This document shows, in pieces, positions 42,497 to 53,719 of a stretch of DNA of 64,000 nt. Position numbers and translations under genes: made by a program. Source of the stretch: Escherichia coli (lineage in GTDB: Bacteria; Pseudomonadota; Gammaproteobacteria; Enterobacterales; Enterobacteriaceae); assembly GCF_051903065.1 (NCBI RefSeq), contig NZ_CP178438.1. One strand, given 5' to 3'. The notes beneath the pieces are model-generated. The model did not search any database. It was given only the letters and a program-made list of their open reading frames with translations, and was not told where the DNA came from. How positions within the stretch are numbered: the first letter of the stretch is position 1; every line of letters starts with the position of its first letter.

Positions 42497-42595
42497 CTAC
42501 GGCGCATTGCCGACGACCACCACCACACGCACGACGACCACTGCGGCGGATGGCGCAGTTGGTAGTAGTTTTGCGTTGAGCATGGAAGTAGTCAT
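42497..42595 (-). CDS. ivbL: ilvB operon leader peptide (32 aa, Val/Leu rich)
   Basis: Minus-strand translation MTTSMLNAKLLPTAPSAAVVVVRVVVVVGNAP* read directly; below ORF-track length cutoff. Confidence 0.85.
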   Translation of the reverse strand: MTTSMLNAKLLPTAPSAAVVVVRVVVVVGNAP

Positions 42596-42724
42596 TGGGG
42601 ACCTTGTTGGTTTTGTGTTTAACAATATTTATACAAGCACAGCTTTACAGGGGAGACAATGGAAAATTTTTCAGCAAGGGAAAATTGAGGGGTTGATCAC
42701 GTTTTGTACTGAATTGCAGATAAC

Positions 42725-42865
42725 AAAAAACCCCGCCGGAGCGAGGTTTCGTCAGTCGCCTGCGGCTGGTAACCGCAAAGCACACTGTATTATGTCAACA
42801 CTGAAAGTATACGTGTTCCGCGCAGAACGCGCAATTTCGGCACGAATTTTGACGTATTTAGTGCA
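42725..42865 (-). ncRNA. istR: IstR antitoxin sRNA (IstR-1/IstR-2), approximate boundaries
   Basis: Minus-strand terminator (stem ccucgc/gcgggg with tetraloop, then U6) at 42725-42746; 20 nt element at 42781-42800 that repeats in the tisAB leader; LexA box just upstream; boundaries inferred, not measured. Confidence 0.5.
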
Positions 42866-42907
42866 TAGTTGAGTATCGATCACAGTTTGCGTTTTGTCCA
42901 AATATTA

Positions 42908-42923
42908 CTGTTTATTTATACAG
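42908..42923 (+). promoter_or_regulatory. LexA (SOS) box CTGTTTATTTATACAG in the istR/tisAB divergent control region
   Basis: CTG-N10-CAG palindrome immediately followed by a TATAAT hexamer at 42933-42938. Confidence 0.75.
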
Positions 42924-43159
42924 TAAACTTCTATAATATCACTGTACGCAATGTGTTATGCGGGGGCCGCATCGTTACCCGGCGCACTAAGTCCTGGCTG
43001 AAACGGGTGGTGCCGTCAGCGCCTTAACCCCGCGTGAGCACACTGTGTTATGTCAACAAGCACAACGTTTCTCCTTGAGATACCGCGTGCACAACAGCTG
43101 GCAACAGGCAGCGGAAAGGTACGTCAGCTGGCAGTGCTCCTGAACCACAGGAGACGCGT

Positions 43160-43249
43160 ATGAACCTGGTGGATATCGCCATTCTTATCCTCAAACTCAT
43201 TGTTGCAGCACTGCAACTGCTTGATGCTGTTCTGAAATACCTGAAGTAA
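43160..43249 (+). CDS. tisB: Type I toxin TisB (29 aa membrane peptide)
   Basis: Translation MNLVDIAILILKLIVAALQLLDAVLKYLK* read directly; below ORF-track cutoff. Confidence 0.88.
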   Translation: MNLVDIAILILKLIVAALQLLDAVLKYLK

Positions 43250-43528: not shown

Positions 43529-44713
43529 ATGAAAAGGCAAAGAAACGTCAATTTGTTATTGATGTTGGTATTACTCGTGGCCGTCGGTCAGATGGCGCAA
43601 ACCATTTATATTCCAGCTATTGCCGATATGGCGCGCGATCTCAACGTCCGTGAAGGGGCGGTGCAGAGCGTAATGGGCGCTTATCTGCTGACTTACGGTG
43701 TCTCACAGCTGTTTTATGGCCCGATTTCCGACCGCGTGGGCCGCCGACCGGTGATCCTCGTCGGAATGTCCATTTTTATGCTGGCAACGCTGGTCGCGGT
43801 CACGACCTCCAGTTTGACGGTGTTGATTGCCGCCAGCGCGATGCAGGGGATGGGCACCGGCGTTGGCGGCGTAATGGCGCGTACTTTACCGCGAGATTTA
43901 TATGAACGGACACAGTTGCGCCATGCTAACAGCCTGTTAAACATGGGGATTCTTGTTAGTCCGTTGCTCGCACCGCTAATCGGCGGTCTGCTGGATACGA
44001 TGTGGAACTGGCGCGCCTGTTATCTCTTTTTGTTGGTTCTTTGTGCTGGCGTGACCTTCAGTATGGCCCGCTGGATGCCGGAAACGCGTCCGGTCGATGC
44101 ACCGCGCACGCGCCTGCTTACCAGTTATAAAACGCTTTTCGGTAACGGCGGTTTTAACTGTTATTTGCTGATGCTGATTGGCGGTCTGGCCGGGATTGCC
44201 GCCTTTGAAGCCTGCTCCGGCGTGCTGATGGGCGCGGTGTTAGGGCTGAGCAGTATGACGGTCAGTATTTTGTTTATTCTGCCGATTCCGGCGGCATTTT
44301 TTGGGGCATGGTTTGCCGGACGTCCCAATAAACGCTTCTCAACGTTGATGTGGCAGTCGGTTATCTGCTGCCTGCTGGCTGGCTTGCTGATGTGGATCCC
44401 CGACTGGTTTGGCGTGATGAATGTCTGGACGCTGCTTGTTCCCGCCGCGCTGTTCTTTTTCGGTGCCGGGATGCTGTTTCCGCTGGCGACCAGCGGCGCG
44501 ATGGAGCCGTTCCCCTTCCTGGCGGGCACGGCTGGCGCGCTGGTCGGCGGTCTGCAAAACATTGGTTCCGGCGTGCTGGCGTCGCTCTCAGCGATGTTGC
44601 CGCAAACCGGTCAGGGCAGCCTGGGGTTGTTGATGACCTTAATGGGATTGTTGATCGTGCTGTGCTGGCTACCGCTGGCAACGCGGATGTCGCATCAGGG
44701 GCAGCCCGTTTAA
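43529..44713 (+). CDS. emrD: Multidrug efflux MFS transporter EmrD
   Basis: 394 aa from MKRQRNVNLLLMLVLLVAVGQMAQTIYIPAIADMARDLNV... Confidence 0.94.
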   Translation: MKRQRNVNLLLMLVLLVAVGQMAQTIYIPAIADMARDLNVREGAVQSVMGAYLLTYGVSQLFYGPISDRVGRRPVILVGMSIFMLATLVAVTTSSLTVLIAASAMQGMGTGVGGVMARTLPRDLYERTQLRHANSLLNMGILVSPLLAPLIGGLLDTMWNWRACYLFLLVLCAGVTFSMARWMPETRPVDAPRTRLLTSYKTLFGNGGFNCYLLMLIGGLAGIAAFEACSGVLMGAVLGLSSMTVSILFILPIPAAFFGAWFAGRPNKRFSTLMWQSVICCLLAGLLMWIPDWFGVMNVWTLLVPAALFFFGAGMLFPLATSGAMEPFPFLAGTAGALVGGLQNIGSGVLASLSAMLPQTGQGSLGLLMTLMGLLIVLCWLPLATRMSHQGQPV

Positions 44714-44720
44714 GCGCACA

Positions 44721-45218
44721 TCATCGCAGCATCGTCATCAGCTCCATGGGAGAACGATGCTGCTTTATCAGATCACGCATCACCCGCATATGCGGTGCGG
44801 AGTAAGAATAAAACGCCTGATAGCCCGCACATAGCATGCTGTCTGGCGTCTCCTCCCGAGCGTGCGGACACAGCCGATGCCAGTCGCACGCCTGGCAGTC
44901 ACGGCGCGGGTGCGGGTTTTCGCTGCCACACCATTTTTGTAGGGTGGAGTCAAATAGCTCAATCGAGATACGACTGATATCTGCCCGCACCCAACACTCG
45001 AACAGGGCAATTAAAAATTTCCCCCACAGCTCTGCTGTCACCGAAGCGGCCGTCATATCGCCCCGGTCATCAAATTCAAGATGGGGAATAAGCTGTACGG
45101 AGCGGATGCCCCGCTGTTTGAAATTGTGATAAAAATCGGCAGGTTGCAGAGCATCCTTGTACTCTACAACCAGTTTATGCCTGTCCTCTTCAGCATCAAT
45201 GACCTGACTTCCTGTCAT
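44721..45218 (-). CDS. yidF: Uncharacterized protein YidF (Cys-rich, possible sulfatase-maturase relative)
   Basis: 165 aa MTGSQVIDAEEDRHKLVVEYKDALQPADFYHNFKQRGIRSVQLIPHLEFDDRGDM...; cysteine-rich C-terminal half. Confidence 0.85.
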   Translation of the reverse strand: MTGSQVIDAEEDRHKLVVEYKDALQPADFYHNFKQRGIRSVQLIPHLEFDDRGDMTAASVTAELWGKFLIALFECWVRADISRISIELFDSTLQKWCGSENPHPRRDCQACDWHRLCPHAREETPDSMLCAGYQAFYSYSAPHMRVMRDLIKQHRSPMELMTMLR

Positions 45219-45577
45219 GCGACTCTCTCAATAAATACGATAAGTTGATGTATATGCGTTACAGCAAACAGTATTGCGAGAGATAACACCGCGAGGGAGA
45301 TCAAAAATTTGTCACGGACTACGTGAAATTGGGAAAAATCGCTATTCGTGACATCCATTAAATTGCGATTACGAGTGTAGTGCCAGAGGATCAGCGCCAC
45401 GATGGCGAGGATGCCAATCGAAATCCAGAATAACATGCCCGCCTGGTGCCAGTTGTGTTTGATAGCCAACGCCATCAACGCGCCGTAGCCCAGCATGGTA
45501 CGAAACCACGCCAATGATGTACGCTCCGGCTGCAGCCCTGGGTCGGCAATGCGTCTGGCTTTGCGGCTATCCGGCAT
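45215..45577 (-). CDS. yidG: Inner membrane protein YidG (DUF202)
   Basis: 120 aa MPDSRKARRIADPGLQPERTSLAWFRTMLGYGALMALAI...; overlaps yidF start by 4 nt. Confidence 0.85.
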   Translation of the reverse strand: MPDSRKARRIADPGLQPERTSLAWFRTMLGYGALMALAIKHNWHQAGMLFWISIGILAIVALILWHYTRNRNLMDVTNSDFSQFHVVRDKFLISLAVLSLAILFAVTHIHQLIVFIERVA

Positions 45578-45914
45578 ACAACACCAGTCCCATAACGATC
45601 ACTGCTACGACCATCAATATTAAGCTGATGATTAATAAGCTGTTGGTGTAGGGCAGGTCCTCTTTCAGACGCATCGCTTTTTCATTGCGTAACCAGCGCA
45701 AGTAGCCATACATCGCTAACCCGCCGGAAAACAGACACAACAACAACGCCAGCAGTTCGCGAATGACGGGCGTGGCGAAATCTGGCGCAAGTTGATCAAG
45801 CCCAACCCCCGCCGCCAGAAATCCTAGTGCAGTACGGATCCACGCCAGAAAAGTACGCTCATTAGCCAGCGAGAAGCGGTAATCAGGCGCTTCTCCGAGG
45901 CGGGAAATTTTCAT
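45567..45914 (-). CDS. yidH: Inner membrane protein YidH (DUF202)
   Basis: 115 aa MKISRLGEAPDYRFSLANERTFLAWIRTALGFLAAGVGL...; paralogous to yidG (shared ERTxLAWxRT motif); overlaps yidG by 11 nt. Confidence 0.85.
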   Translation of the reverse strand: MKISRLGEAPDYRFSLANERTFLAWIRTALGFLAAGVGLDQLAPDFATPVIRELLALLLCLFSGGLAMYGYLRWLRNEKAMRLKEDLPYTNSLLIISLILMVVAVIVMGLVLYAG

Positions 45915-46022
45915 TGTTGCTCCTTTGCAATTTCACTAACGCTCTACCTTTAGCGGTTTTTTTTAAGAATTTCGTCCGCCCGTTTCCTGATATGCTTTTG
46001 CCATCCGCTACAAGGAGGTCAG

Positions 46023-46472
46023 ATGGGTATCATAGCGCAAAATAAAATCAGTTCATTGGGCATGCTATTCGGTGCCATCGCTTTAATGATGGGGATTATC
46101 CACTTTTCATTCGGCCCTTTCTCCGCACCACCGCCAACGCTTGAAAGCATCATGGCGGACAAAACGGCTGAAATTAAAAGAGGTCTTCTCGCCGGAATAA
46201 AAGGCGAAAAAATTACCACCGTGGAGAAAAAAGAGGACGTAGATGTCGATAAAATCCTCGATCAAAGCGGTATCGCACTGGCCATTGCTGCGCTACTTTG
46301 CGCATTTATTGGCGGTATGCGTAAGGAAAATCGCTGGGGCATTCGCGGCGCGCTGGTTTTTGGCGGCGGGACGCTGGCTTTCCATACCTTGCTTTTTGGT
46401 ATCGGCATCGTGTGCAGCATTTTGCTGATATTCCTTATCTTTTCCTTCCTGACCGGCGGTTCACTGGTTTAA
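46023..46472 (+). CDS. yidI: Inner membrane protein YidI
   Basis: 149 aa MGIIAQNKISSLGMLFGAIALMMGIIHFSFGPFS... Confidence 0.85.
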   Translation: MGIIAQNKISSLGMLFGAIALMMGIIHFSFGPFSAPPPTLESIMADKTAEIKRGLLAGIKGEKITTVEKKEDVDVDKILDQSGIALAIAALLCAFIGGMRKENRWGIRGALVFGGGTLAFHTLLFGIGIVCSILLIFLIFSFLTGGSLV

Positions 46473-46518
46473 GCAGCCTGAATAATGCCCGCCGGGTGTT
46501 CATCAGCGGGCATTATCG

Positions 46519-48012
46519 TCAGAACTTCTGTTTTTTCTCTTCCACCTTCACCCCTTGTGTCGGTAGGCCGGTGTCATAGTCGCGTACCACTGGCGAATAA
46601 CCATCTTGTGGGCGTGGACGAAATGCCCCCATCCAGCGCGGCTGTGCATCTTTACGCCACGGACGCAGGCTCCATTGGTAACTGCGGAACGGATCGCGAA
46701 TTTTGTCCATATAATCCAATAAGGCATCATGCATTTTGCTGCGAACGTCGGCAAAATGGGCATCATCGATCAGGTTATGCATTTCATTTGGATCATTACG
46801 GCGATCGTAAAGTTCATCACTGGTGAAGAGGTTGAGCACCAGTTTAAAGTCATCCGTCACCCAGCAACGCACCGGAATAAAACCGCCAAAGCTGTCATGC
46901 TCAATCTCGTAGCGGTTAAATTCCACCATCACGCCGCGTGGCTCTTTCACGGCAAGGATATTTTCCCCCGGCAGAATCTCTGGTTTTTCAATATCTGCCA
47001 GCGCCATCATTGTCGGCAGTAAATCGATATGACTGACTGGCGTATTGACCTGTCGCCGCTCCCCTTGCGGCGAACGGATGATCAGCGGAATACGGGTGAT
47101 GTCGTCATACATCGCCGCTCCTTTACTGATCAGCTTATGTGCGCCCATCATTTCGCCGTGATCGGATGTATAAATAACCCACGTATTTTCACGTTGCTCT
47201 GGCGTTAAAGCATTGATGACCCGTCCTATTTGGTCATCAACAAAGTCATTACAGGCAAAATAGAGCGGATGGTGATAAAGCCCGTCATCACCGACTGGCG
47301 ATGGCATCGCCTGCGCCCATAAGCGGTGATGTTCTGGTTTGTTCGCCAGGTCATCCTGTGCTTTCTCGCCCAGCTCGTAGTAAAAATCAGCGTATTTCTC
47401 TAAATACTCCACCGGACAGGTGAACGGGTGATGCGGCTCATCATACGAAACCACCATCAGGAAGGGTTCCTCGGTGCGCGCGGGCTGTTGCAGAAAATCC
47501 ACCGCCCGATTGCTGATGCGGTGCGCCCAGGTGAAGGTTTCGTCGATATGGTTCGCCTGTAAATCCTCAACGCTATTTAGGCCATTGCGCCACAGGCTAA
47601 TCTCTTTCTCCGTCAGTTCGCTAAGATAGTTCGCCCCATCGAACCAGTAATCAGCATCCCACTCCGGCGGACACTCGCCAGTGCCGAAATAGTCATGTCC
47701 ATCGAGATGCCATTTGCCGATGTAACAGGTGTGATAGCCGGCATCCTTAAAGTAGCGCCCCATAGTGGAGATGTTTTTGCCTGGCGCGACGTTGTTGGTC
47801 CACGGGCCGGACTGGTTAGCGTAGATACCGGTGAATAGTCCGGCGCGTGCAGGCGTACAAACCGGTGAACAGGTGTAGGCGGAATTAAAGCGAATACCTT
47901 CCGCCGCCAGACTATCAATAGTCTGCGTATTCAGCGGGTTACCGCTATAGCACCCGACCATATTGGTGGCCTGGGTATCGGTCATGATGAACAGAAAATT
48001 GGGGCGTTTCAT
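46519..48012 (-). CDS. yidJ: Putative sulfatase YidJ
   Basis: 497 aa MKRPNFLFIMTDTQATNMVGCYSGNPLNTQTIDSLAAEGIRFNSAYTCSPVCTPARAGLFTG...; sulfatase CxPxR signature (CSPVCTPAR). Confidence 0.92.
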   Translation of the reverse strand: MKRPNFLFIMTDTQATNMVGCYSGNPLNTQTIDSLAAEGIRFNSAYTCSPVCTPARAGLFTGIYANQSGPWTNNVAPGKNISTMGRYFKDAGYHTCYIGKWHLDGHDYFGTGECPPEWDADYWFDGANYLSELTEKEISLWRNGLNSVEDLQANHIDETFTWAHRISNRAVDFLQQPARTEEPFLMVVSYDEPHHPFTCPVEYLEKYADFYYELGEKAQDDLANKPEHHRLWAQAMPSPVGDDGLYHHPLYFACNDFVDDQIGRVINALTPEQRENTWVIYTSDHGEMMGAHKLISKGAAMYDDITRIPLIIRSPQGERRQVNTPVSHIDLLPTMMALADIEKPEILPGENILAVKEPRGVMVEFNRYEIEHDSFGGFIPVRCWVTDDFKLVLNLFTSDELYDRRNDPNEMHNLIDDAHFADVRSKMHDALLDYMDKIRDPFRSYQWSLRPWRKDAQPRWMGAFRPRPQDGYSPVVRDYDTGLPTQGVKVEEKKQKF

Positions 48013-49724
48013 AGGCTATCCTTTGCATCGGGAGTAAAGGTTACGGCTGGGTCGTGACGATGCCGCCAGCTGTCAAAAATCAGGTAGACAATCACTACGG
48101 CGGCAATGAAATAACTGATCATCGCTAACCAGCGCGTACCGTAGCCGCCGAATTCAGCCAGCCCGGCATAGACGCCAATCATCGCGAACAGGATGCCAAT
48201 TGACGCGATCTTGACGTTTTTCCACGGTTTCATGTCCACCGCAAACGCATCTTTGAAGGTGAACGGCGTGGCGCGCGGTTTGATAAAACCGATCACCAGC
48301 ATCACGACCACGTTGATGCAGAACGTACAGGCCAGCACATAGAGGAAATGGAAGTCGAACTTCACCAGATAGTTGATGGTGATGTAGCTGATTATGCCAA
48401 TCCCCATCGCCACTTTTGCCGCCAGCGCCGGGATGCGCGGGAAGAAAAAGCCCATAATGATGATGGTAACCAGCGGCACGTTGTAAATGCCGTTGAGCTG
48501 TTTCATCCAGCTATACAGCCCCTGCGGCGCGTTGGCGATCCACGGCGCTACCAGCACCGAAACGATAGCGATAAAGAAACCAAATTTGCGCCCGACGGTG
48601 ACCAGCTGCTGCGGCTCGGCATTCTGGTTAATGATGCGACGGTAAATACCCATACTGAATAACGTACTGGCGCTATTCAGAAAGCCGTTGAAGGTACTGA
48701 TCACTGCACCAAATAACACCGCGCCGAAGAAACCCACCAGTGGCACTGGCAGAACGTTATTGACCAGCGTCGGGTAGGCCATGTCGGCTTTCGGTAGATC
48801 CTGATACAGATGAAACGCAATCAACCCTGGCAGCACCAGTACCAGCGGGTCGAGCATTTTCAGCACCGCCGTTAACAGCGCCCCCTTTTGCCCTTCCGCC
48901 AGGCTTTTTGACGCCAGCGTGCGTTGCACGATGCCCTGATTTGTACACCAGTAAAAGGTGTTCACCAGAATTAAACCGGTAAATGCCGCGCCAATCGGCA
49001 AGGGATCGGTCGGGCCACCGACTGAGTTTAATTTCTCGGCGTGAACGGTGGTAATTTGCTCAATGCCCTGCATAAAGCTGCCCTTGCCCATCGCGATCAG
49101 GCCAAATACCGGCACCATCAACCCGCCGATAACCAGCCCAATACCGTTGATGGAGTCCGCCACTGCCATTGCGCGCAGTCCGCCGATCACCGCATACAAA
49201 ATTCCCGCCAGACCAAGCAAAATTACCAGTAGCCAGATAGCCGCACCGTGAGAAATCTGTAGCGATTCCCCGACGTGAAACAGGCTGTTGAGCGCCAACG
49301 CGCCGGAGTAGAGAACAATCGGCAGAAAGCAGACGCCGGTGGCAATGAGGAAGCAGAAGTCGATGATAATACGCGTCGTTTTATCATAACGTTCCTCCAG
49401 AAAATCGGGGATGGTGGCAATGCCGCGCTTCAGATAGCGCGGTAAAAAGATTAGCGCGAGGAAGATCAGCGTCACCGCTGAAGTCACTTCCCAGCCCATC
49501 ACCGACATGCCGCTTTTGTAGGCCTGCCCGGAAAGACCAACCAGTTGTTCCGTGGAAAGGTTGGTTAACATTAACGAAGCGGCAATAACCGGCGCTTTTA
49601 GTGAACGTCCGGCAAGAAAATAGCCTTGTTGCGATCCGGTATCTGTTTTGCGAACCTTCCACCAGGTGATGATCGCCACCAGCAGCGTAAAACCGACAAA
49701 ACTCAAGATTTGTAACGAATTCAT
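48009..49724 (-). CDS. yidK: Sodium:solute symporter family transporter YidK
   Basis: 571 aa MNSLQILSFVGFTLLVAIITWWKVRKTDTGSQQGYFLAGRSLKAPVIAASLMLTNLSTEQ...; overlaps yidJ by 4 nt. Confidence 0.92.
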   Translation of the reverse strand: MNSLQILSFVGFTLLVAIITWWKVRKTDTGSQQGYFLAGRSLKAPVIAASLMLTNLSTEQLVGLSGQAYKSGMSVMGWEVTSAVTLIFLALIFLPRYLKRGIATIPDFLEERYDKTTRIIIDFCFLIATGVCFLPIVLYSGALALNSLFHVGESLQISHGAAIWLLVILLGLAGILYAVIGGLRAMAVADSINGIGLVIGGLMVPVFGLIAMGKGSFMQGIEQITTVHAEKLNSVGGPTDPLPIGAAFTGLILVNTFYWCTNQGIVQRTLASKSLAEGQKGALLTAVLKMLDPLVLVLPGLIAFHLYQDLPKADMAYPTLVNNVLPVPLVGFFGAVLFGAVISTFNGFLNSASTLFSMGIYRRIINQNAEPQQLVTVGRKFGFFIAIVSVLVAPWIANAPQGLYSWMKQLNGIYNVPLVTIIIMGFFFPRIPALAAKVAMGIGIISYITINYLVKFDFHFLYVLACTFCINVVVMLVIGFIKPRATPFTFKDAFAVDMKPWKNVKIASIGILFAMIGVYAGLAEFGGYGTRWLAMISYFIAAVVIVYLIFDSWRHRHDPAVTFTPDAKDSL

Positions 49725-49890
49725 CTCATAGCCCTTATTTATGTTTATGTCCCGGACGCATGAATATAGGGAGAGGTAAAATGCGTCGGGTCAGGCAGTC
49801 AGATTCTTAAAATACAAACGTCGTATCCCTGAACGGATTGTTTTCTGTTAAGTTCAGGTTGTGAGCATAATTCGCCGGAGGGATATTAAA

Positions 49891-53719
<3,829 letters not shown>

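Follow-up and report, generated by a model that had tools for sequence, protein, structure and literature searches.

The yidF-yidL locus of Escherichia coli: a conserved sulfatase and symporter gene set with a shrunken maturase gene

The yid locus and its relatives

The locus described here lies in a 64,000-nt stretch of Escherichia coli DNA (NZ_CP178438.1; hereafter the window, in which all coordinates are positions, with "+" and "-" giving the strand) and consists of the genes yidF to yidL, which an earlier note on this DNA had proposed to be a self-contained module for the import and desulfation of a sulfated sugar. The gene yidL (49891-50784, +) encodes an AraC/XylS-type regulator and is divergent from yidK (48009-49724, -), which encodes a 571-aa sodium:solute symporter of the SGLT branch. 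The intergenic region between the two (49725-49890) is presumed to be a control region, given the divergent AraC arrangement. Next to yidK is yidJ (46519-48012, -), encoding a 497-aa family S1 formylglycine-type sulfatase, and beyond the small membrane protein gene yidI (46023-46472, +), which is on the strand opposite to its neighbours, are yidH (45567-45914, -), for a DUF202/Vtc1-like three-helix membrane protein, yidG (45215-45577, -), for a paralogous DUF202 membrane protein, and yidF (44721-45218, -), for a protein of 165 aa, on which the open reading frame listing and the RefSeq annotation of an identical strain agree. As described previously, yidK and yidJ overlap by 4 nt (ATGA), and yidH, yidG and yidF form an overlapped unit of three genes, with 11 nt shared between yidH and yidG and 4 nt (ATGA) between yidG and yidF; translational coupling may be expected from these overlaps.

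The statement that this is chromosomal core DNA agrees with the distribution of the 5-kb region, which is matched in 5420 of 5426 complete E. coli genomes and always on the chromosome. Strain 23CRST027 shows 100% identity over a 7-kb stretch round the locus, and this stretch has a match in 5422 of the same genomes, never on a plasmid. The DNA of yidFGH is found in around 5420 of these genomes and yidJ in 5131, whilst yidI with its spacers (45915-46518) is polymorphic, being present in 4006. The locus is an annotated, so far uncharacterised, example of the sulfatase, maturase and transporter kind.

A scan for YidJ with one genome per species gave 69 loci, onto which all cassette genes were then mapped. 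In 37 loci from other Enterobacterales species and Vibrio mediterranei, yidL is divergent from yidK-yidJ-yidH-yidG-yidF and YidF is full length (362-384 aa, with a CxxxCxxC motif); among them are those of Citrobacter werkmanii, C. braakii, C. youngae, C. amalonaticus and C. sedlakii, as well as Trabulsiella, Kluyvera, Atlantibacter, Pluralibacter, Buttiauxella, Pantoea, Rahnella, Limnobaculum and Enterobacillus. V. mediterranei has all six genes of the set, and a short YidF is encoded at nine related loci and at that of the window. Across the related loci yidL adjoins yidK in 50, and yidG is always paired with yidH. That yidL, yidK, yidJ, yidH, yidG and yidF are one conserved gene set is supported by these observations.

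Two database entries look like mislabelled or contaminating enterobacterial DNA. The first is a contig labelled Chryseobacterium sp. 18061 (L020; CACSKA010000004.1) with a typical enterobacterial yidLKJHGF and 87% YidJ identity, and the second is a protein filed under the nematode Trichuris trichiura (P0149), a YidJ that is 86% identical to that of E. coli.

The gene set is not always complete. The yidL, yidK and yidJ core occurs without other cassette genes in Halomonas, one Marinomonas locus and Rahnella ecdela, yidK-yidJ with no detectable yidL in Martelella and Erwinia oleae, and yidK-yidJ with a gene for an anaerobic sulfatase-maturating enzyme (anSME), without DUF202 genes, in Sodalis. 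The genes yidH-yidG-short yidF are kept without yidI, yidJ, yidK or yidL in two Citrobacter loci and in Klebsiella pneumoniae, yidHG alone is kept in Enterobacter kobei, and around 5% of E. coli genomes are without yidJ yet carry yidFGH. This pattern would be expected if yidHG, with or without yidF, were a separate system standing beside the sulfatase genes, for example a general anion or stress membrane channel, with only yidL-yidK-yidJ forming the import-desulfation unit, and the published phenotypes of YidH, which are unrelated to sulfate esters, point the same way. Such a reading is possible but is considered the less probable one, because in 37 loci (Enterobacterales, Vibrio) the DUF202 pair is placed exactly between the sulfatase and the anSME with short spacers or overlaps. 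In addition, a second Marinomonas locus carries the trio anSME-DUF202-DUF202, ordered differently, beside two pairs of sodium:solute symporter (SSF) and sulfatase genes. The DUF202 pair thus travels with maturase and sulfatases, which would hardly be expected of genes that had no functional link.

The gene yidI had been counted as a member of the module, but it is on the opposite strand, is missing in around 26% of E. coli genomes as well as in the majority of other genera, and has no Pfam or NCBIfam match. Among the related loci (L004-L082) it is found only in Escherichia (L007, L008 and L044), Phytobacter, C. youngae and S. arizonae. In E. coli strains without yidI, yidJ and yidH share a strand with 59 nt between them, the arrangement also seen in most other genera, and strain IMT16316 (L084) has the ancestral contiguous K-J-H-G-F arrangement. 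yidI is a polymorphic insertion outside the conserved module.

Between the convergent stops of yidJ and yidI, and 3 nt past that of yidJ, is a hairpin with a 13-bp stem (46482-46516), which has an RNA folding energy of -27.5 kcal/mol (z = -5.2, with 0 of 200 shuffles as stable). It is a probable bidirectional terminator or RNA-end stabiliser, terminator function being proposed with caution since the hairpin has no clear U-tract. The yidI insertion together with the strong hairpin suggests that yidKJ and yidHGF are probably separated transcriptionally in this strain and made as separate transcripts, in which case the divergent spacer between yidH and yidI (45915-46022) presumably holds the yidHGF promoter. 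This spacer has AGGAG 7 nt upstream of the yidH ATG. A consensus promoter and terminator scan of 44500-50100 gave a single promoter-like site, weak and within a gene, and nothing convincing as a terminator, and a simple scan found no consensus sigma-70 promoter in the yidH-yidI spacer or the yidK-yidL region; with these scans uninformative, the operon structure is read from gene geometry and the hairpin.

The sulfatase YidJ and the symporter YidK

The sulfatase motif CSPVCTPAR that had been noticed in YidJ is present, with C52-T-P-A-R56 (codons 47845-47859) followed by AGLFTG, which is the C/S-x-P-x-R signature of S1 sulfatases, and the protein matches the Pfam models Sulfatase PF00884 (E 6.9e-72, residues 4-341) and SGSH_C (E 4.8e-17). 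By inspection of an alignment to 9ihk, D12, K100/H102, D285/H286 and K297 are present, and the second Asp of the usual DD pair is Thr13. The N-terminus of YidJ is the first beta-strand of the sulfatase domain, so that there is no signal peptide and the protein looks cytoplasmic. Orthologues are 65-91% identical across Gammaproteobacteria and are also found in some Alpha- and Betaproteobacteria. The ratio of nonsynonymous to synonymous divergence (dN/dS), calculated pairwise by the Nei-Gojobori method here and below, is 0.03-0.07 for yidJ, and within this 0.04-0.06 in lineages with a short YidF, the same as in those with a full-length YidF.

The structures nearest to YidJ are only around 30% identical to it and belong to subfamilies S1_30, S1_17 and S1_11; as they are distant and represent several S1 subfamilies, no substrate can be read from them. 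The substrate had been called undefined, and the literature searched for yidJ, yidK, yidF and yidL indeed gave no substrate assignment, holding only high-throughput mentions of these genes; it also has no description of the maturase remnant of the cassette or of the other features reported here.

Pairs of a Cys/Ser-type S1 sulfatase gene and its own radical-SAM/SPASM maturase gene are likewise found in Klebsiella atsA-atsB and in E. coli aslA-aslB and ydeN-ydeM. The sulfatases of these pairs are exported, whereas YidJ has no signal peptide and comes with an SGLT-type importer, an AraC regulator and two DUF202 proteins, and the maturase of the yid locus is truncated in E. coli. Choline-O-sulfate utilisation, by BetC and a transporter, likewise consists of sulfate-ester import followed by intracellular S1 hydrolysis. 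YidJ, however, falls below the cutoff of the choline-sulfatase model (202 bits against 433) and so is not a member, and the yid transporter is of the sugar symporter type. The score on the arylsulfatase model is 217 bits, against a cutoff of 481.

YidK matches PF00474 (E 4.8e-50), NF007790 (857 bits against a cutoff of 401) and TIGR00813 (417 against 184), and its best solved relative is vSGLT, the Na+/galactose symporter of Vibrio parahaemolyticus (2xq2/3dh4; E 1e-53, 186 bits). In vSGLT, galactose is bound by Q69, E88, N260, K294 and Q428 together with a stacking tyrosine (PMC8037263). In a sequence alignment, YidK keeps seven of the eight sugar-site residues examined, namely four of the five galactose hydrogen-bond ligands (Q60, E79, N255 and K289 for Q69, E88, N260 and K294), the stacking tyrosine (Y258 for Y263), and S82 and W259 for S91 and W264. 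The difference from vSGLT lies at the position of Q428, which is K408 in YidK (codon 48501-48503) and Lys or Arg in all nine YidJ-paired transporters examined, with F424 replaced by Tyr and Q425 by Ser or Thr in all YidJ-paired YidK. The SSF proteins whose genes adjoin GH36 alpha-galactosidase genes keep Gln at the Q428 position. Judged from sequence, the pocket would suit a hexose with an anionic group. Deletion of yidK impairs growth on galactose (PMC5293155).

In Martelella, Erwinia oleae, Rahnella and Halomonas the cassette is found among unrelated genes, which fits a product requiring no special catabolism, and no consistent catabolic partner gene was found in the yidKJ neighbourhoods of Halomonas, Martelella, Erwinia oleae, Rahnella, Sodalis and one 58%-identical homologue. 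The Marinomonas loci adjoin GH36 alpha-galactosidase and SSF genes as well as further sulfatases, a context that is suggestive of galactosides, though it is not conserved elsewhere. The lack of linked sugar-catabolic genes would also suit a cassette that scavenges sulfur rather than carbon, or whose target is a sulfate or phosphate ester outside the sugars, for example choline-O-sulfate, an aryl sulfate or a phosphonate monoester, as would the scores of YidJ on the choline-sulfatase and arylsulfatase models and its annotation as a sulfatase/phosphatase. Both scores are, however, far under their cutoffs, the partner transporter is of the SGLT sugar type with galactose ligands conserved, YidL is of the AraC type and not a sulfur-starvation regulator of the CysB/Cbl type, and the yidK deletion phenotype concerns a sugar, making this alternative an unlikely one.

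The flanking regulator had been named as AraC-like, and YidL accordingly matches HTH_AraC (E 5e-18), HTH_18 (E 2e-17) and AraC_binding (E 7e-7) in Pfam. The gene is AT-rich (GC 0.40). In K-12, the yidL promoter is repressed by H-NS and activated by BglJ-RcsB, with transcription starting at the older annotated GTG (PMC3950696); repression by H-NS fits the GC content of yidL and explains the silence of the locus in the laboratory.

YidF and the YidH/YidG membrane pair

YidF has six cysteines in 165 aa, so the previous description of it as Cys-rich is correct as far as it goes, but this label is incomplete, as the protein is an anSME descendant without the radical-SAM core and auxiliary cluster I. 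A check for radical-SAM or anSME-like motifs had been proposed. It gave a partial anSME match, to TIGR03942 (76 bits against a cutoff of 349.45, covering only model positions 160-363), whereas neither E. coli YidF nor any other short form has CxxxCxxC, and a Pfam search gave no match to E. coli YidF, including none to Radical_SAM or SPASM. Full-length orthologues have CxxxCxxC near the N-terminus (at residue 15 in most, counted from the conserved M-T/S-G-C start), and that of C. werkmanii aligns with the Clostridium perfringens anSME (anSMEcpe; 4K36) over its whole length (E 9e-69).

Compared with the full-length orthologues, E. coli YidF has two in-frame internal deletions, the first removing around 145 residues that make up the radical-SAM core and the second around 55-60 residues, including the cysteines aligned with C255, C261 and C276 of anSMEcpe. 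An N-terminal truncation with a new start codon was ruled out, because YidF still begins at its original start (MTG...), yidG and yidF still overlap by ATGA, and the losses are internal. The cysteines C108, C111, C117 and C130 (44829-44897) are kept and align with C317, C320, C326/C330 and C348 of anSMEcpe. In the latter we take the ligands of auxiliary cluster I to be C255, C261, C276 and C330, and those of auxiliary cluster II to be C317, C320, C326 and C348, by which assignment the four cysteines left in YidF would be the equivalent of the auxiliary cluster II set.

A model of YidF made with AlphaFold2 (AF2) from a 43-sequence alignment has a pLDDT of 84 and a pTM of 0.82 and is confident except for the N-terminus and the Cys loop; its only significant matches in the Protein Data Bank (PDB) are the anSMEcpe entries (4K36-4K39; E around 1e-5, TMq 0.62-0.65). 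The likeness to anSMEcpe consists of this fold and the four aligned cysteines, and the differences are the absence of the CxxxCxxC cluster, of the SAM-binding half of the barrel and of C255, C261 and C276. E. coli YidF is a descendant of an anSME, as it has the same place after yidG, the same start, an alignment to the orthologues and fold matches to anSMEcpe only. Judged from its sequence, it cannot be a maturase: with the radical-SAM core and auxiliary cluster I lost, it cannot activate YidJ. The low dN/dS of yidJ, including in short-YidF lineages, suggests that YidJ is nevertheless in use and that in E. coli it is matured by something other than YidF.

Short YidF proteins (140-178 aa) are found in Escherichia, Salmonella enterica arizonae, Klebsiella oxytoca, K. 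spallanzanii, K. pneumoniae, Superficieibacter, Leclercia, Silvania and part of Citrobacter. They are monophyletic in 199 of 200 neighbour-joining bootstraps (161 shared columns), and both deletion sites are common to them. An independent origin of the short form in each genus is disfavoured by this monophyly and the shared deletion sites, with long-branch attraction as a caveat. The first deletion does not have the same length in every short form (P0100 and P0102 deviate), which suggests progressive erosion of YidF. Among the Citrobacter species, closely related ones carry either the full cassette with a complete anSME (L009, L012 and L014) or only yidH-yidG-short yidF (L002 and L079) at the same chromosomal site, and the Citrobacter short yidF allele groups with that of Escherichia, which implies locus replacement or an old polymorphism.

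The short form could be a dead relic with no function of its own, its frame open by chance or only because translation stabilises yidHG mRNA. It is without every feature needed for radical-SAM chemistry and without a Pfam match; its protein changes several-fold faster than those of the neighbouring genes (81-83% identity between E. coli and other Escherichia, against 95-99% for YidJ, YidK and YidH); and some E. coli strains have a frameshift in yidF, whilst Enterobacter, Phytobacter and Tenebrionibacter lack the gene. Selection, however, speaks against a relic. The dN/dS of short yidF is 0.11-0.12 between E. coli and three other Escherichia lineages, 0.24 between Escherichia sp. E1V33 and E. 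whittamii, 0.045 for a Klebsiella pair, 0.19 for a Superficieibacter pair, and 0.147 between two Citrobacter lineages without yidJKL. Five independent comparisons of short forms gave 0.045-0.24, the same range as full-length yidF (0.085-0.137). The frame is also open in Escherichia, Salmonella arizonae, Citrobacter, Klebsiella, Superficieibacter and Leclercia at 41-54% identity, three cysteines are invariant and the fourth nearly so, and the AF2 fold is compact. In enterobacterial forms, long and short alike, conservation of the C-terminal helix (APHMRVMRDLIKQHRSPMELM) is high, and several of its positions do not vary. Short YidF evolves fast in protein yet is clearly under purifying selection, and a relic is therefore thought improbable. 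The unexpected element of the locus is this radical-SAM-less maturase remnant, maintained by selection together with a Vtc1-like membrane pair.

That YidG and YidH are paralogous DUF202 proteins holds, as both match Pfam DUF202 (YidH E 2.8e-19, YidG E 7e-12), are around 24% identical to each other, and have invariant E-R-T and W-x-R-T motifs. Their dN/dS is 0.00-0.065 for yidH and 0.04-0.15 for yidG. A profile of the pair matches Vtc1 chains (E around 2e-3), and an AF2 model of YidH has three helices (pLDDT 81), with the top eight PDB matches all being VTC chains (TM 0.59-0.76). R20 of YidH, the invariant arginine of the ERT motif, aligns with R31 of Vtc1, which lines the narrowest part of the polyphosphate channel (PMC9911596). 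The Pfam family, three-helix fold and this arginine are thus common to yeast VTC (7YTJ, 8I6V, 9UMG); unlike VTC, YidH and YidG have no SPX or polymerase partners and are a two-paralogue pair tied to a sulfatase and a maturase. By analogy, YidH and YidG may plausibly form an anion pore for released sulfate.

A speculative extension, which is regarded as doubtful, is that short YidF has been repurposed as a cytoplasmic Fe-S-binding subunit that forms, with YidH and YidG, a membrane system not dependent on the sulfatase, such as an anion (sulfate) channel that responds to redox state or iron. If so, a radical-SAM enzyme without its catalytic core would have been retained for a new role, and this would be the first function for bacterial DUF202 proteins.

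Proposed function and chromosomal setting

The account that is on balance favoured is that the locus descends from a six-gene cassette, yidL plus yidK-yidJ-yidH-yidG-yidF, for the use of a small sulfated hexose. The substrate class, the direction of transport, the export of sulfate by YidH/YidG and the route of YidJ maturation in E. coli are what we infer in the scheme that follows. YidL would turn the operon on, its own promoter being silenced by H-NS in E. coli, and YidK would import the sugar sulfate as an SGLT-like Na+ symporter, in which the Lys or Arg at the Q428 position could pair with the sulfate. YidJ, a predicted cytoplasmic sulfatase of the Cys (formylglycine) type, would then cleave off the sulfate, and the freed hexose would enter central metabolism, as the cassette comes with no catabolic genes of its own. 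In most relatives the full-length radical-SAM anSME YidF would convert Cys52 of YidJ into formylglycine, and the Vtc1-like YidH and YidG would form an anion pore that releases the sulfate. In the E. coli lineage, YidJ may be activated by the AslB or YdeM paralogues or by a further E. coli system; a third route of sulfatase maturation has reportedly been described in this species.

The conserved gene set, the SGLT-type YidK and the cytoplasmic appearance of YidJ thus bear out the import-and-desulfation picture for the gene family, but only partly for E. coli. The description as self-contained likewise suits the family and not E. coli itself, where YidF is without its radical-SAM core, the operon is split and yidHGF can persist without the other genes.

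Several points weigh against the sulfated-hexose cassette as set out here. By inspection, YidJ has Thr13 where many S1 sulfatases have their second metal-binding Asp, and the literature of 2025 still labels yidJ as a putative sulfatase/phosphatase. The argument from Q428 to Lys or Arg concerns one position in a sequence alignment at around 25-30% identity, and one sulfatase-adjacent Marinomonas SSF keeps Gln there. Published work describes the yidH deletion mutant as sensitive to H2O2, high in iron and low in NADPH, and YidH overexpression scored in a screen for D-Ala export without measurable transport. The genes yidHG, with or without short yidF, persist under purifying selection with no adjacent sulfatase, and as they are selected without yidJKL in Citrobacter, K. 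pneumoniae and Enterobacter, their role is not strictly tied to YidJ and would go beyond the export of sulfate derived from YidJ. Finally, the simple promoter scan gave nothing useful, and co-transcription in this strain is a prediction from geometry.

E. coli has three sulfatase genes and no known sulfatase substrate, and formylglycine formation in this species is a long-standing loose end. Against this background, yidKJ is seen to be part of a cassette with its own complete maturase, conserved from Vibrio to Enterobacterales. The E. coli copy of the maturase is gutted whilst the sulfatase is under strong selection, making YidJ a natural client of a maturation route other than YidF, and C. 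werkmanii and the E. coli strains without yidI offer intact systems for comparison. The basic residue in the YidK pocket and the Vtc1-like YidH and YidG lead to concrete hypotheses on substrate class and sulfate disposal. If the scheme is true, a cytoplasmic route for sulfated monosaccharides would let gut E. coli feed on fragments of mucin or dietary glycans freed by other bacteria.

Change at the locus is visible within Escherichia. Strain CFSAN051542 (L083) has a remnant of IS200/IS605 tnpA/tnpB in place of yidIJKL, with yidF frameshifted, and in IMT16316 yidL is split by IS1; mobile elements are eroding the locus in some strains. Synonymous divergence between the strain of the window and other Escherichia is around 0.8-1.0 for yidF and 0.4-0.6 for yidG and yidH, and at yidK only 0.16-0.18 against L007 and L008 and 0.48 against E. 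whittamii (L044). This unevenness suggests a recombination mosaic.

On one side of the locus, emrD (+) and yidF converge with 7 nt between their stops (44714-44720) and no recognisable terminator, and just upstream of emrD (42497-43249) are the genes annotated in an identical strain as ivbL, for a leader peptide, and tisB, for a type I toxin, together with ysdE. On the other side, directly after yidL (50781-53719), are intact genes for a glv-type 6-phospho-alpha-glucosidase and phosphotransferase system (PTS) IIB/C components, with the convergent ends of yidL and the glucosidase gene overlapping by 4 nt.

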